Counted from the stretch's first letter, positions 27,001 to 42,000 are shown. The stretch is DNA of 52,244 nucleotides from an uncultured Pseudomonadota bacterium (GCA_964429275.1 CAYSBJ010000002.1:124001-176244), one strand, 5' to 3'. Program-made: the numbers.

Positions 27001-30000
27001 TTATTCTCTTCCTTTGCTGCTTTTCTTTCGGCGGCTCGCCGTTCTTGACGGCTTTGCTTAGGGGCCTCGCCCCCAGCTGCCCGCCTTGCTGCTTCGGTGC
27101 TGCTTATCGGCTTTGCAGAGGCATCCCGTCGCGCGTTTTCTTCATCGCAGGCGGCAAGAAGGGTTTCTACTCTGGAAGGCTCCGTGAGTCGCTGGCCATT
27201 AACTATCTGCACTTCTCCTGATTTGCGATATAGTACCGATCCTAGTGGAACGGCTGGGTCGCTGGCAGTTGGCACCACATAGCCGTAACCGTCTTGATCA
27301 AGGTAGATGATAAAATCGAACGCTTTACCGCCATCTGGGCCATCCGTGAGGCCTTTTCTGCGGAAAACGGTCACTTCTATACTTTTTTCGGCGCCGTGTG
27401 CTTCCTGAAATCGATCGACCATTTTTGTGCGCAACATATCGATCACCATTAATCGCGCCGTTTCCTGGGGAGTTATAGTCGCCTCATGGTCGGCATGGTG
27501 TCGTGGTGCACTACCTGCTATCTCCTCAGCACTTATTGCAGGCCCTTCAAAATATTCTGCTGTGGCGGATAAGTATGATTTCATGGTTGGAAAATGACCA
27601 GGATCAGGCATGTTTGCGAGTAGTATTCCGAATGCGTAACGAAGGTCTGACTCAAAAGCACTCCCAAAGAGCTGAACGCTGGCACGCGCTTTATCTGATA
27701 ACCCCCCCCCCCAAGGCAAAGTCCGCTCCGCTACAGACTCCTGCAAGTCCAAGGAAAAAACTGAGTATTAACGCTATTTTGGTTTGATAATTGTTATTCA
27801 TATGACCACTATTTTTTTGGGGATTTTCGTGTGCTTCGTTTTGAGCGCCTGGGCGCTGGATACTTACTAAAACTGCGATAGGATGATACTTTTTTCTGAG
27901 GAGCCTGTCAAAGTCCCGGTGGCCGTTGCAAGCGAGAAAAAAGGCGATCACTTTTTACGGCGATCGCCTTAACTTTTAACGAATGTTTGGCCAGTGACCT
28001 TACATGCCGCGGATGTTTTCCTTAAGTTGCTTGCCTGGCTTGAAGCGAGGAATGCGAACTTCTGGAAGGGTGATACGTTCTTTGGTCGCTGGGTTGATGC
28101 CAGAGCGTGATGGACGACGAGAAACCCAGTAAGAACCGAAACCGGTAAGAGATACCTTGTTTCCTTCTTTGAGTTCTTTTTCAATGATGCTTGTAATCGA
28201 CGCAAGTACTCGTGCGATGTCTTTTTTGCTAAACGCAGTTTCTTCACTTACTTTTGTTATTAATTCACTTTTGTTCATAGTAGCCTTTCCGGGTATTCAA
28301 ACGGTTAAAAGTAACGCATCTGGCACGGAAATGTATTGTGATAACCGTGCTTTGTCAAGAGAAACAGAAATCTTTATTGCGGCAGCGATAGCTTTTTTGG
28401 GCTCTTGATATGCTATGCGTGCAAAGGGGGATCGTTTCACTTGTCAGCAATTTTCCCTTATTGAAATGTTTTTATGACTGTAGAGTGACGGATGAGGAAT
28501 GATCGTGTAGGATGGCGGCTCTTGCGGGGTTTTTTGCCTGCTGTAGCCAAGGAAGGAACGAGTTGTATGATGATCGATACCCACTGTCACCTCAATATTA
28601 TGGTAGATAAAAAGCCAGAAGAGCTTTTGCGCCAGGAACATTTCCCTGCTATAGAACACATTTTACGAGAAGCTGCTGCGTCTAATCTTTCTTATCTTAT
28701 TACCGTGGGTACCTCTATCCCTGAATCACAGAATTGTGTTGCAGTAGCAGATCGATATCAATCGTCTCCTATTGTTAAAGCTACCATTGGGGTGCATCCG
28801 TGTGATATCACCCAGCCGATTGAAGAGATTATTCGTGAGCTTGAGGCAATTGTTTTTTCTCCGACTGGAAAACATGTGGTAGCGATTGGTGAAATTGGTC
28901 TTGATTATTATCATCAGCCATACGACAAGGAACTTCAGGCGCAAGTGTTTATTGCGCAACTTGAGCTGGCCAAGAAGCATAATTTGCCGGTTGTTATCCA
29001 CATTCGTGATGCCGGAGCAGATGCATTGACGATTTTAGAAAAATATAAAAATGACCTTTGTGGTGTTATTCATTGTTTTTCGCTCGATTTGGCTGCTGCC
29101 GAGAGAGTTATTTCTTGGGGATGGTATATTGGCATTGATGGTCCAATTACCTACCCAAAAAACCATGATTTACGCTCTGTAGTTGCTACAGTGCCATTGA
29201 CTGGCATTGTGATGGAAACTGACGCCCCGTTCTTGCCGCCGCAGCATTTGCGGGGCAAAAGGAATAGTCCGGCTAATCTTGGCATTATTGCACAGGCTAT
29301 TGCTGATGCGCGAGGGATTTCACTTGCAGAAGTTGTTGCGCAGACAGCAAAAAATGCTCGGGCATTGTTTCGGCTTTAGAATTCTTCGGTTGTTCTTTTT
29401 ATAAGCTGTTCAGTGTACTCGCTAAGCCCTTCTTTTGATTCTACGCGTTTGAGGTGTTCGTAGGCATACTGAAGAACTCGTTCATCAAAGCCTTCTCGCG
29501 CCAGAAGGTCGAGGGCGATGACAGTAGCATTGATGCCGGGCTTGAGAGTGTATGGATAGGTGAACGACCCATCATTGTTTTTGTAAGCAGCAACGTGATG
29601 ATTTGTGAATTGGCTTGTTTGTTCATCACTAAGCTTGGTTAAATGAAAATAGTGGGTTGCTAGTATGAGCAGACTACTTGGGCACTTACCCAGTTCTTTG
29701 CCGATACCATAGGCTGCTGCAGCGCCAGCTGCTGGATTGGTACAACGAAACATCTCATCCATGACGGTAAGTGCGTATTCGTTTTCTTTTAGATGCATAA
29801 TTTGTGTGATTAGCTCATTGGCACGGCGAACTTCAGCTCGGTGTTGCGAGAGCGCATTACCGGCATCCTCAACGATATTGAGGTAGGTATTTAGGTGGGC
29901 AAACGGTGTTAAGTGTATTGCTTTAGCAGGTACGACGGTAATTGTTTGGGCGAAAAGGGAGGCTAGGACAATCCCCTTGATGATAGTTGATTTACCTCCG

Positions 30001-39000: not shown

Positions 39001-42000
39001 ATGCCGGCGAGTTCTTTAAAAAGCGTAGCTAGTTTTTTGCCTAATTGCGGACGTGCCATGAGATAGCGCGCAAGATTTTGGCGCCTTTCGAGTTCTTCCT
39101 GATTTGTTGAAGGCATAACTATCCACTTTGCTTGCGCCATTTTTCCGTTCAAAGAAGCGCCGCGATAAGTAGATTCCAGAATGGTATAGTCAGGGCGATC
39201 TATGTTGTAGAAAAAGAGGTTTAAGTCGGTAATAGATTTGGCATCAAGGCATGATGCTACCTCTTCAACATTTTTATCCCCCCCCAGAAATTGGAGGAGA
39301 ATGTTATGCATTTCATATGGAGAGAGTTTATATGCTGGGAATGAGACGCCATTTTTCCCTTTTTTTACTTCCTGAGTTGTGCGAACTGCGGGGAAGTTTT
39401 TGAGTATCTCTGCTCGCAGTAACTCATATGGCTGCGTATTTTGTCCCATAAGCGCCATGCTTAGTCCGCAGAAAAAGAGTGTCTTGGTAATAGTCTTTAA
39501 TGAGAAACGTTTCATGGTTATTCCTTTGTCGGTACGTAGCGGTCAGGGTGATTAAGAACATCACGCATTTTTTGTGTCATAACAAGTGGTAGACCTATTT
39601 TTTCAAGGAGGTCAGGGGCGATTTGTTGTGTTGTCGATCCTTCGTAGAGGCCGTATGGATACACAAATTCACCGTTTTCATCTTTTTCTACGATAACTTT
39701 CATATTTTTATAGAGATCTTTTCTATTCTTCGCCAGCGTTGTAAGACCAGGAAAGTGCGAGGCGAGGAGCAAGAGGCTATTTGAGTACATGCCAAGTTTT
39801 TTGGCAATTGCAACAGCAAGTGCTTCCCCTTCTATGCGTTCGGTACCAGTACAAATTTCATCCAAGATGGTAAAGCTGAATTGATTGCGTGGCAGTGTAT
39901 TTACGGTGCTAAGCAGCTCTTGTGCCCGGGTGATTTCAGCGCGGAAGAGTGATTGTTGCTTGCTCACGTCATCAGTGATATTGAGGTAAGTGTTGATGGT
40001 ATGAAATGGCGTAAATGAGAACGAACGTGCCGGCGCTACACCAAAGACCTGGCCAAAGATGCAGCATAAAGCAATTGCTTTCATGTGTGTTGATTTACCA
40101 CCTGCGTTAACGCCGCTTATCATGATGCTGCTTGGGTTATTATTGGTTCCTATAGCGATCGAATTGGTGACAACCGTTTTTTCATTGACCACTGGGTGAT
40201 GGAAATCTGTTGCATTGATAACAGGGGTCGATTGATTTTCTAAGATTTCTACGAAACAGTATGGCGCGTGCGACTGCTTTCGTTCTCGAAGCAGCTTTGC
40301 TACGGAAAGGTAGGCGTCAAGGTGGCCAATGAGAATCATGCCATCACTTGCTTTTGCAATAACTTTTTTTGCCTCAAGAAGAGCGTTCGCAACGTCCCCC
40401 TTGCCAGAAAAAACAGTTTTAAGTGTTCCTGGCATGCCCCCATCGGCCGGTGGTACAAATTTATTCTTGTCAAGGCGACGAGCTAATTCTTCAAGTTCGA
40501 CTTCTGTAGTGTCAGCGTATCGTTCACTTTGTACCCTTAATTCGCTTACCATTTGTACGGCTGGCAAGCTGTTGATCGCTGCTAATGCACGGAAAAGTGC
40601 GTTAACCGAAGAAAGGCGCCGTTGAATGTACGCTGCGGTCTGCGCGTCGCGGCGTAGTTGCCCAAATACGCTGATGGTAACAAACGTCATGTACGCGCCA
40701 AAAATACCTATAGCGGTTGGTATAAATGCTTTAAGCGTTTTATAATTGCTGCGATTCTTCATCTCATTGATGGCTTGAGTTACCTGAGATTCAATTTGCT
40801 GATCAGTTTCATGAGATCCGCGAAACCGCCGGAGCATTTTCCGACTCCTGCGAGCTGCACTGGCACAAGAGCCATCAAAATCAGTAATGAACTTAATGGC
40901 AGCAACGTCAAGAATTGTTGCGCTGAGTGCGCCTACGGCAAAGGTGAACATAGATAGACCAGCTTGCAAGTTTAGGGCGCCGCTAATGGCTTTTGATGAT
41001 TGTAAGATTCCTACTGTATTGTAGGAATTGAGAATATGGTCTTGTCGCATGCTGTCAGTGGCGAGCATAAGACTAATGAGGCTTTCTTCCTCTTGTGCCA
41101 CTGCTTTGATGATGGCACAGAAATCTTCAAATACATTGTCATCTTCGACAAGTAAGCGAATAAATTTTTGTCGTGCTTTGATGATATCAGCGTTTGTTTC
41201 TGGGTCTAAAAGCATACGAGTATAGATAAGCTCACCGATTGTTGTTTCGGTGCGCTTCGTGGCGCCTACGACGGTTTTGTGCCCGATGCGGCTGCTGTTG
41301 GTGAACAACTCCAGATTTTCCCATACATTACGATTGGTAACGGCAGTGCGTGCAATAGGGTCCGCGTTTGCGTTAAAAAATTTGAGCTTGCCCAGTGAGT
41401 TGAATATGAGGTCCGCCCGATCAAGTTTTGGAAGCGAATAAGGGTTTTTGGCAAAAGCGGCCTTAAAGAATCCCCAGAGTTGCTGGAAGCCATTTTGTAA
41501 TGCAGGAGCCGGCTTTAATTTTTCCAACTCTTTCTTTGTCAGCATGCTGGTGTAGAGTTTTTCGATATCCTGGTAACGATTATCGATTACAATAGCCGGT
41601 TTTTTGCTCGCAGTGGCACTCTTTGGCTTGTTAGCTGTGGTTGGCTTTTTTGGAGTTGCTGTTTTGTTGATGGTTGTTTTTCGCGTTGTTTTCTTTGGTG
41701 CTACCGGCAACAGAAGGCCAGGCATCAAAAGACAAAACGCGCTCAGCAGAGCGCGACGGCAGGTATGATTAAACATTTAAATTCCCTATAAAATGTAGCT
41801 ATAATCGACTTTTAGTGTAGGGGATTTTGCTTCAATTGGCAAATCAGGGTTACTTGCGGCGAGTTTTGGTGATCGATCGGCGGCGGGCTCCATACCAGGC
41901 TCGCATGAGCATTTCATAGGGGCCGTAGTCAAGGGCAATATGGCTTATGGCCCCCACTACAAAGTAGATATAGAGGTCTAGGGCATATGCGGTGTACTCC

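Follow-up and report, generated by a model that had tools for sequence, protein, structure and literature searches.

Each protein encoded by a tandem array of MutS relatives, located on the minus strand of the window (the whole stretch of DNA that was analysed, 52,244 nucleotides), retains the core/lever helices (domain III), the ABC-type ATPase (domain V) and the helices beyond the ATPase, and lacks the mismatch-binding, connector and clamp domains. The tip of the lever carries a conserved hydrophobic helical hairpin at the position of the clamp in MutS, and repair is the job of a separate canonical MutS in the genome. By sequence comparison, the array appears to be a bacterial, signal-peptide-bearing branch of the MutS8 subfamily. 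We propose, with about an even chance of being right, that these proteins are exported ATP-driven dimers that function on the envelope's host-facing side, most likely at a membrane.

The gene array and its copies

Six tandem ORFs encode MutS relatives of 642-752 aa, with neighbours spaced from a 4-nt overlap (start of p3 with stop of p4) up to an 83-nt gap, and they end exactly at the limits, 29376-41776, that the initial annotation had given for a six-gene array. The bacterium that carries them is an intracellular member of the phylum Dependentiae. The features are the following.

29376-31304, minus strand: p1, 642 aa, MutS8-like
31248-31304, minus strand: p1 signal-like N-terminus, residues 1-19
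30549-30701, minus strand: p1 hydrophobic hairpin, about residues 202-252
29988-30011, minus strand: p1 Walker A, GPNAGGKS
29748-29771, minus strand: p1 Walker B, with D-E
31309-33279, minus strand: p2, 656 aa, apparently a catalytically degenerate paralogue
33220-33279, minus strand: p2 signal-like N-terminus
32395-32583, minus strand: p2 hairpin
31858-31881, minus strand: p2 Walker A, GIFESGKS
31618-31641, minus strand: p2 Walker B, with D-A (also ATNF instead of ATHF)
33317-35332, minus strand: p3, 671 aa, 49% identity to p5
35279-35332, minus strand: p3 signal-like N-terminus, no K/R ahead of the core
34340-34510, minus strand: p3 hairpin region
33893-33916 and 33653-33676, minus strand: p3 Walker A and Walker B
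35329-37305, minus strand: p4, 658 aa, the modelled copy
37246-37305, minus strand: p4 signal-like N-terminus
36490-36651, minus strand: hydrophobic tips (residues 219-272) of the p4 long helical hairpin H209-246/H254-308
Residues 424-646, minus strand: p4 ATPase
35908-35931 and 35668-35691, minus strand: p4 Walker A and Walker B
37389-39515, minus strand: p5, 708 aa
39444-39515, minus strand: p5 signal-like N-terminus
Within 38523-38846, minus strand: p5 hairpin segments, separated by a 70-residue loop
37962-37985 and 37722-37745, minus strand: p5 Walker A and Walker B
39518-41776, minus strand: p6, 752 aa, 50% identity to p4
41696-41776, minus strand: p6 signal-like N-terminus
41597-41695, minus strand: p6 Lys/Thr/Pro-rich tract after the signal, residues 28-60
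40673-40951, minus strand: p6 hairpin
40091-40114 and 39851-39874, minus strand: p6 Walker A and Walker B
L009:4194-6353, minus strand: seventh copy, 719 aa

PF00488 is found at eight places in the genome, namely the canonical MutS and seven others. This search located the seventh intact copy and the family profile the broken eighth, both of which had been claimed before; the latter is a pseudogene that matches profile positions 93-444 and then 607-679 in a different frame, with the P-loop core absent. Recomputed pairwise identities among the paralogues are 20-50%; the range of 25-48% given earlier is thus not exact, and the reading of the copies as old paralogues stands.

Domains, fold and catalytic motifs

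In Pfam searches, MutS_V is present in all six array proteins (47.2-112.9 bits against a cut-off of 30.2) and MutS_III in five at E<=0.01, with p4 and p6 alone passing its 34.1-bit cut-off, while MutS_I, MutS_II, MutS_IV and Smr (PF01624, PF05188, PF05190 and PF01713) gave no match at E<=0.01 in the six. Pfam therefore agrees with the earlier description of domains III and V without I, II or IV, the MutS_III match being weak. The canonical MutS of the genome has 820 aa and domains I, III, IV and V. With MutS1, including this one, the array proteins share the core/lever and ATPase fold, the Walker A and B motifs, the H-loop His and the C-terminal helices; they differ from it in the absence of domains I, II and IV and in the presence of a signal-like N-terminus and the hairpin.

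The AF2 model of p4 (pLDDT 90.8, pTM 0.89) is predicted to be helical over residues 28-402, including the hairpin, and then to form the ATPase, which is the architecture previously described for g00576. The best Foldseek matches are all MutS, MSH3 or MSH6 (top 7oto_A, E 1.2e-19, TMq 0.57). In parallel, a PDB profile search gave 179 bits for MutS1 and 109 bits for MutS2, and hhalign against the genome's own MutS gave a probability of 99.75, with the canonical MutS_IV (397-487) aligned opposite the hairpin region. Collectively, these data support the view that the proteins are MutS-derived ATPases, old paralogues that are distinct from the repair MutS.

Three other identities were rejected. For a canonical MutS, domains I and IV are absent and NF003810 (NCBIfam) reaches 51-130 bits against a cut-off of 480; for MutS2, there is no Smr, and TIGR01069, whose cut-off is 400, gives no more than 85.5 bits and does not match p2; for an anti-phage defence ATPase, PADLOC matches are only of P-loop length, at 12-15 bits. 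MutS3 is a bacterial group of unknown function that has the ATPase with or without the core domain only, often in two copies (Lin, Nei and Ma 2007, PMC2190696); its likeness to the array is one of description only, and neither signal peptides nor membrane segments are mentioned in that paper.

Among 143 aligned members, the G, G and K of Walker A are found in all, the Walker B D in 142, its E in 138, and the H-loop His in 138. The p2 clade apart, the predicted catalytic residues are kept throughout the family. The five motif deviants include p2 and three tree neighbours: P0049, P0066, P0130 and P0136 have the same losses as p2, and P0066, P0130 and P0136 cluster with it in the tree, from which P0049 was left out. 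In this clade the putative catalytic Glu and His are lost, and the Walker B D-E that had been called invariant is already broken in the array by p2 itself.

Relationship to MutS8

To our knowledge, MutS8 is a named but little studied subfamily without known function, and it was reportedly described in giant viruses by Ogata et al. in 2011. It is defined by a reduced architecture that lacks the mismatch-binding, connector, clamp, Smr and HNH nuclease domains. By Pfam, the array proteins have this architecture; the MutS_V domain, which for MutS8 should have intact motifs, is found in six of six (47-113 bits), and the matches include a Tetraselmis virus 1 protein named MutS8 and the cBtQ1 homologues of Cardinium proteins so named. 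In particular, structural matches in BFVD include a Yasminevirus MutS-family protein (E 1.1e-25, TMt 0.71) and 'MutS subfamily 8 [Tetraselmis virus 1]' (E 4.4e-18, TMt 0.62), and the family profile, over its positions ~70-680, scores up to 496 bits with ORFs of giant-virus contigs in IMG/VR. The giant-virus proteins have the III+V body and the two hydrophobic mid segments of the array proteins, the first segment having a Kyte-Doolittle median of 2.01 as compared with 1.62 in bacteria. In a tree in which the outgroups are MutS1 and MutS2 only, the viral ORFs are unnamed and no named MutS3-MutS8 sequences are included, the bacterial members group together in a single clade (support 91), and the viral members fall outside it. 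At E<=1e-40 the profile finds 1-9 matches per genome in 105 of the 121 genomes of Dependentiae.

The viral loci have a further feature. At 41/80 of them the next gene downstream specifies a small, membrane-anchored protein that begins with a hydrophobic helix, as identified with a profile of five such neighbours, each of which has a C-terminal SAP domain in Pfam; SAP is a DNA-binding motif. In contrast, no SAP domain was found in this genome, which is without such a gene, and no conserved partner gene was found across 15 Dependentiae loci.

In bacteria, two homologues from Cardinium cBtQ1 align with the family profile over its full length, at 565 and 519 bits, and their N-termini are signal-like. 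Cardinium belongs to a different phylum (Bacteroidota), and its genomes have two copies each, without a six-gene array; its homologues are ~26-27% identical to p4, and their hairpin segments are less hydrophobic than those of the array (0.93-1.59). According to Mann et al. 2017 (PMC5698495), CAHE_0017 and CAHE_0267 of Cardinium hertigii belong to subfamily MutS8, are expressed, are considered secreted on the basis of predicted signal peptides, and may as such manipulate the DNA of the host. The claim that an exported branch of MutS had not been described was therefore mistaken and, given the matches to giant-virus and Cardinium MutS8 and the published signal-peptide predictions, the family is not new. 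What is new here is its spread across Dependentiae, the signal contrast between bacteria and viruses, the hairpin, the losses in p2 and the viral SAP-family neighbour.

N-terminal signals

Putative signal peptides were called by our own hydrophobicity and -3/-1 rules, and the N-terminal score is the mean Kyte-Doolittle value of the hydrophobic 12-mer, counted as signal-like at >=1.8. All seven intact copies score 1.96-2.62, as compared with 0.98 for the canonical MutS and 2.31-2.47 for three secretins used as positive controls, in agreement with the initial annotation, which had assigned a signal to every intact copy and none to the canonical MutS. The pattern M-(K/R)-hydrophobic, which it had extended to seven of seven, holds for the hydrophobic stretch but not for K/R, present ahead of the core in 5/7. 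Among the 143 bacterial members, 126 score >=1.8; the hydrophobic core has a median length of 14 residues (interquartile range 10-17), with K/R ahead of it in 126/143 and a small -3/-1 site after it in 127/143, and an h-core of 7-17 residues begins by residue 20 in 105/143. By these rules, the N-termini have the features expected of putative type I signal peptides, p3 and p4 being without K/R.

The score is poorly selective in this genome, as 437/857 crude ORFs reach >=1.8. Similar N-termini are found on 10/13 ankyrin ORFs and on six AAA+ ATPases, and the genome also encodes three secretins and signal peptidase I. In one cultured Dependentiae, signal peptides are reported on 44% of CDS (Deeg et al. 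2019, PMC6561590). All nine full-length members from Cardinium, Amoebophilaceae, Cytophagales and one other genome are signal-like (eight at >=1.8, the ninth at 1.72). Unlike the array proteins, 62/66 giant-virus members lack the signal, and 4/66 score >=1.8 (Fisher p 4e-32 against the bacterial members). The recurrence of the pattern in these bacteria and its absence in the viral members strengthen the export reading.

The hydrophobic hairpin

In the p4 model the hairpin is long and looks exposed. The two segments are only moderately hydrophobic, with 19-mer Kyte-Doolittle medians of 1.5 and 1.35, and both reach >=1.2 in 81/143 members. On an approximate Hessa-type insertion scale, the values for the seven copies are +2.0 to +7.8 kcal/mol, which is not what a self-inserting helix would give; viral and bacterial members do not differ on it (p 0.10). 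The hairpin could be a dimer interface instead of a membrane element. Atlastin, mitofusin and bacterial dynamin-like proteins combine a head that dimerises in a nucleotide-dependent manner with a long stalk of helices, the tip of which bears a hydrophobic hairpin. These are GTPases of an unrelated fold, and their resemblance to the array proteins would be a functional analogy without homology.

Proposed working and alternatives

In the working that we propose, the N-terminus would be a Sec signal that carries the entire protein out of the bacterial cytoplasm. The proteins would form MutS-like dimers of one or of two kinds of subunit, in which the p2 type would be the partner that does not hydrolyse ATP; other asymmetric MutS/ABC pairs are a precedent. 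ATP-driven opening and closing of the lever would be passed to the hairpin, which would bind or enter a membrane, and the substrate may be the membrane, DNA held at the membrane or a host complex. The site of action would be the host-facing side of the envelope or the host cytoplasm, since ATP is abundant there and the giant-virus relatives, which have no signal, are synthesised in the host cytoplasm.

We regard it as unlikely that the proteins are instead envelope residents with a housekeeping task, anchored in the inner membrane by signal peptide and hairpin and with both domains periplasmic. Host ATP en route to the TLC transporters would then be used for envelope maintenance or the handling of imported polymers. 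In favour of this view, Sec alone goes no further than the periplasm, the five TLC nucleotide transporters of the genome imply that ATP crosses it, and about half of the ORFs have such N-termini, too many for host effectors alone; dense periplasmic material has also been described (Deeg et al. 2019, PMC6561590). Between the hydrophobic segments, K/R make up 14.4% of the loop (10.5% overall), an enrichment that a cytoplasmic loop would show, but the stretch behind the hairpin is K/R-rich too (328 K/R against 208 D/E), so that the charge bias gives no clear topology. Moreover, giant viruses have no periplasm and yet retain the same protein without the signal, which makes the host cytoplasm the more likely shared workplace, and arrays with many copies that diverge fast are seen more typically among genes for host interaction.

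A shade more doubtful is the view that the proteins are soluble secreted effectors that enter the nucleus or organelles of the host, with host DNA or mismatch-repair complexes as their targets. MutS-DNA structures place the mismatch and backbone contacts in domains I and IV; both are absent here and the hydrophobic hairpin takes the clamp position, leaving the action on host DNA or repair complexes envisaged in the initial annotation weak. What still speaks for it, besides MutS descent and the conserved ATPase, is, indirectly, the SAP-family neighbour of the viral genes and the Lys-rich tract with a TPKK motif behind the signal of p6 and its orthologue, although the genome has no SAP domain and the tract is limited to 7/143 members. 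The Cardinium homologues have likewise been proposed as secreted DNA-interacting candidates (Mann et al. 2017, PMC5698495).

It is highly improbable that the proteins are cytoplasmic, with an N-terminal stretch that stems from a wrongly called start or serves as a peripheral anchor, and that they act, like other MutS paralogues, on the bacterium's own DNA or ribosomes. In favour of this, the characterised paralogues MutS1 and MutS2 are all cytoplasmic and require ATP, 17/143 members score below 1.8 and, according to Mann et al. 2017 (PMC5698495), no signal peptide is predicted for the Amoebophilus asiaticus homologues, but the n-h-c pattern is kept in form, not in sequence, across Dependentiae and Bacteroidota, matches the secretin controls and is missing precisely in the viral clade.

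The proposal of exported ATP-driven dimers can be extended to the whole subfamily in a joint reading, offered as a speculation that is unlikely to be right. MutS8 proteins would be membrane-mounted ATP-driven clamps in which the hairpin replaces the DNA clamp, and not repair enzymes. In viruses, a membrane-anchored SAP-family partner would hold or move DNA at the membrane, while in Dependentiae and Cardinium the Sec signal would deliver the machine to the host side, where expanded paralogue sets including a non-hydrolysing partner would remodel or tether the membranes of the host or the DNA of its organelles.

MutS8 thus links giant viruses with unrelated obligate intracellular bacteria in the same kind of host cell, and the signal contrast, the hairpin at the clamp position, the catalytically dead clade and the viral SAP-family pairing provide handles on its function. 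If the array proteins do act beyond the cytoplasm of the bacterium, they would stand out as a rare example of ATPases exported by Sec, an arrangement open only to a parasite surrounded by the ATP of its host. Such an N-terminus on six AAA+ ATPases suggests that this may be a general habit of Dependentiae.

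A tandem array of MutS8-like ATPases

Window positions 29376-41776 on the minus strand are filled by six ORFs (p1-p6 in coordinate order, 642-752 aa), with spacing that ranges from a 4-nt overlap to an 83-nt gap. All six match MutS_V in Pfam (47-113 bits), and five also match MutS_III weakly, with only p4 and p6 passing the cut-off. No MutS_I, II, IV or Smr domain was found by Pfam in p1-p6, and their NCBIfam scores fall far under the MutS, MutS2 and KamC cut-offs. The genome (1.21 Mb in 8 contigs, the window being positions 124001-176244 of contig C2) contains eight MutS_V matches: seven proteins of the array kind and its canonical MutS, an 820-aa protein in which domains I, III, IV and V are all present. 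Some 220 kb away from the array are a seventh intact copy of 719 aa and a broken eighth; the latter retains only family-profile positions 93-444, plus 607-679 in a different frame, so that its P-loop core has been deleted. All seven intact copies also bear a hydrophobic N-terminus. The tandem array of MutS-like ATPases described in the initial annotation is confirmed.

Pairwise identity among the seven intact copies is 20-50%, with values of 49% between p3 and p5 and 50% between p4 and p6. In the tree, the partner of every window copy is a representative from elsewhere with 49-68% of residues identical, indicating that the duplications are old. A genome of the same genus gives nine family-profile matches, six of them consecutive. 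Neither promoter-like sites (31 vs 25.1 expected from shuffles) nor terminator-like sites (18 vs 20.2) are in excess.

Distribution and previous description of the family

With a cut-off of E<=1e-30, a family profile built from the seven intact copies retrieves 4,050 cluster representatives. The top 150 have scores exceeding 440 bits; most of them match over the full length, and most are 600-750 aa long. At E<=1e-40, the profile matches between one and nine times in each of 105 of 121 sampled Dependentiae genomes (72 of the 81 genera). The nearest database proteins bear the name Candidatus Dependentiae, and related contigs are labelled Babeliales, TM6 or Dependentiae. Full-length members also occur beyond this phylum, in Cardinium cBtQ1, Cardinium sp. 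TP, an Amoebophilaceae MAG, a Cytophagales MAG and MAGs labelled Pseudomonadota; nine full-length ORFs from five such genomes all have signal-like N-termini, eight scoring 1.96-2.52 and one 1.72 (mean Kyte-Doolittle value of the hydrophobic N-terminal 12-mer). Ten MAG contigs with members carry the labels Alteromonas naphthalenivorans or uncultured Pseudomonadota (L092, L095, L097, L105, L110, L112, L115, L120, L122 and L127). These labels may be wrong, the contigs may be mis-binned, or further intracellular lineages may possess the family.

An exported branch of the MutS superfamily had been presented in the initial annotation as undescribed, a claim that fails since such a branch is already in print, as a brief remark. 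Mann et al. 2017 (PMC5698495) place CAHE_0017 and CAHE_0267 of Cardinium hertigii in MutS8, with predicted signal peptides and with moderate and high expression, and within the literature searched, signal-bearing MutS8 proteins are described there alone. The window thus holds a new, much expanded set of members of a known family.

Signal-like N-termini

The hydrophobic N-terminal 12-mer scores 1.96-2.62 in the seven copies, compared with 0.98 in the canonical MutS. The genome encodes signal peptidase I and three secretins, which are necessarily Sec substrates and, as positive controls, score 2.31-2.47. Across 143 aligned bacterial members, the hydrophobic core has a median length of 14 residues (interquartile range 10-17) and starts at median position 7; a K/R residue stands before the core in 126 members and a small -3/-1 site after it in 127, and the core is at least 18 residues long in 25 and absent from 8. 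Judged by our own hydrophobicity and -3/-1 rules rather than by SignalP, this sequence pattern is that of predicted cleavable Sec signals, not of membrane anchors. Such N-termini are common in this genome, as 389 of 891 crude ORFs reach a score of 2.0 and 437 of 857 reach 1.8, a share in agreement with the signal peptides on 44% of Chromulinavorax CDS reported by Deeg et al. 2019 (PMC6561590). Housekeeping proteins of the window (LepA, SSB, DnaE and others) score low. Directly after its signal-like N-terminus, p6 has a basic tract, the like of which (K/R-rich) is present in only 7 of the 143 members:

41597-41695, minus strand: Lys/Thr/Pro-rich tract with one TPKK motif, p6 residues 28-60

Relatives in giant viruses

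Labels in the ESM Atlas (Bacteroidota, Nucleocytoviricota) were taken as leads only and then tested by structural and sequence searches. The top viral structural match is a MutS-family protein of Yasminevirus (E 1.1e-25, TMt 0.71), the other best one being the 'MutS subfamily 8' of Tetraselmis virus 1. When IMG/VR was searched with the 143-sequence alignment, relatives were encoded in 519 of 600 scanned stretches; p4 alone as query found no relative in viral contigs. In the 80 loci retained, alignments of the ORFs to the family profile reach 496 bits and span positions ~70-680; the contigs were taken as viral from IMG/VR GVMAG names, a GC content of 24-42%, and Erv1/Alr and aminoacyl-tRNA-synthetase neighbours.

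Bacterial and viral members differ at the N-terminus, where a score of at least 1.8 is reached by 126 of 143 bacterial members vs 4 of 66 distinct viral ORFs. A FastTree phylogeny was built on 104 rows, drawn from every third representative, with all that score low added, and from every second viral ORF, with seven MutS1/MutS2 sequences as outgroups. It splits the family from the outgroups with a support of 99 and places the bacterial rows in one clade (support 91), with the viral rows outside it in two groups; supports are local and some branches long. Viruses have their proteins made in the host cytoplasm, whereas bacterial ones need a signal to exit the cell; most simply, both would then work on the host side, and this inference is the chief argument for export to that side.

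In 41 of the 80 viral loci, some of them duplicates, the MutS8-like gene is immediately followed, on the same strand, by one for a small protein whose N-terminus forms a hydrophobic helix, as counted with a profile of five neighbours in which Pfam, run on 12 loci, detected a C-terminal SAP domain. The protein has an acidic middle, and the C-terminal SAP was seen in these five Pfam-tested cases. No SAP match was found in the present bacterial genome.

Examples of the conserved MutS8-like/SAP-family gene pair on IMG/VR giant-virus contigs
L026: 3497-4207
L035: 3278-3979
L039: 3363-3953
L040: 3528-4370
L052: 3267-3854

Fold, ATPase site and hairpin

Modelled by AF2 on the 143-sequence alignment, p4 (pLDDT 90.8, pTM 0.89) is helical over residues 28-402, followed by an alpha/beta ATPase at 424-646. 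The top Foldseek matches of this model are all MutS, MSH3 or MSH6 (best 7oto_A, E 1.2e-19, TMq 0.57). In a profile search of PDB sequences, E. coli MutS is the best match with 179 bits, covering the start of domain III (261-349) and domain V (532-796), and MutS2 follows with 109 bits; hhalign aligns the family with the canonical MutS of the genome across 235-770 with a probability of 99.75.

In the 143-sequence alignment, the G, G and K of Walker A are invariant, the Walker B Asp is kept in 142 members, and the Walker B Glu and H-loop His in 138 each. Five members (p2 and the family representatives P0049, P0066, P0130 and P0136) have lost both the Glu and the His and kept the P-loop Lys; P0066, P0130 and P0136 cluster with p2 in the tree, P0049 being outside its sample.

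31309-33279, minus strand: p2, which like these four relatives lacks the Walker B Glu and H-loop His and has a Walker A of the form G(I/L/P)xxSGKS

By analogy with asymmetric MutS and ABC dimers, p2 is read as a candidate nucleotide-binding, non-hydrolysing partner. A complex prediction for two copies of p4 residues 165-658 scored 0.01 against a mark of 0.42, which says nothing either way on dimerisation.

In the p4 model, the longest helices (209-246 and 254-308) are predicted to form a hairpin with hydrophobic stretches near its tip (219-238 and 254-272). The canonical clamp domain (Pfam MutS_IV, 397-487) aligns opposite this region in hhalign, in low-confidence columns. Two hydrophobic 19-mers lie between the lever helices across the whole family; in bacterial members, their Kyte-Doolittle medians are 1.5 and 1.35 (both at least 1.2 in 81 of 143), and the loop between them has a median of 33 residues with 14.4% K/R vs 10.5% overall. 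For whichever segment is the more hydrophobic, the median is 2.01 in viral vs 1.62 in bacterial members, despite a less hydrophobic viral ATPase core. The seven copies score +2.0 to +7.8 kcal/mol on a Hessa-type scale, on which viral and bacterial members show no difference; this, like the K/R-rich flank beyond the hairpin, argues against a simple transmembrane reading. Hence the hairpin is only a candidate membrane element, and it could instead pack within a dimer. In literature searches on MutS8 and on MutS in Dependentiae, Cardinium or Amoebophilus, no earlier account was found of the hairpin, the expansion in Dependentiae or the viral SAP pairing.

Place of action

These features make the function of the MutS8-like family testable. 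For the array, the reading that we favour, and to which we give about an even chance, is that its products are exported and work on the host side, probably at a membrane, as ATP-driven MutS8 dimers. The initial annotation had proposed effectors acting on host or organellar DNA, of which export is plausible, with the difference between bacterial and viral N-termini in its favour, and the DNA target found little support. Residence in the periplasm would fit the Sec-type N-termini and is set against the shared host-side workplace suggested by the viral relatives; we regard it as unlikely. Soluble effectors on DNA, for which the MutS-like fold speaks and against which the hydrophobic hairpin opposite the clamp stands, are slightly less probable again. 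A cytoplasmic location, which the bacterial members with low N-terminal scores might favour, is very improbable given the signal pattern of the family.

Genome context

Of the five TLC nucleotide transporters that the genome encodes, one lies in the window (1298-2752) and the four other paralogues on contig C1, three in tandem at ~350396-354495. The gene next to the ATP/ADP transporter at 1298-2752 codes for an ankyrin-repeat protein of 945 aa whose N-terminus is strongly signal-like (window 1-1283, the ORF starting 1554 bases before the window). Of the 13 ankyrin ORFs of the genome, 10 have signal-like N-termini. So do six AAA+ ATPases, one of them a double-AAA protein and another a Lon-like protease, also double-AAA, of 1126 aa. 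Exporting ATPases thus seems a habit of the organism, and these sequences suggest that more than one ATPase family may be exported.

AAA+ ATPases with signal-like N-termini in the same genome, outside the window (all minus strand)
L196: 1201-3021
L197: 849-2417
L198: 374-3751
L199: 1029-2324
L200: 1161-3119
L201: 1374-3095

No conserved partner gene was found in 15 loci from other Dependentiae genomes, where no neighbour cluster recurs in more than three loci. A role of the array in anti-phage defence was rejected, as PADLOC gave P-loop matches only. Four contigs of 4.2-12.6 kb (C4-C7) have a GC content of 60-70%, vs 46% in the three large contigs, and are probably assembly contaminants. Among sequencing runs containing this DNA, none of RNA was listed; the two of DNA belong to a single study, and one of them may be the source.

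The window has a single tRNA gene:

43771-43847, minus strand: tRNA-Met (CAT)

Many signal-like ORFs of the window have no Pfam match at E<=0.001, as is the case for 11 of 27 scanned window proteins; the same has been reported for the secretome of cultured Dependentiae.

Window stretches with ORFs that have signal-like N-termini and no Pfam match
5778-11112
16410-17711
18660-21392
22465-23481
44179-44631
45920-47595
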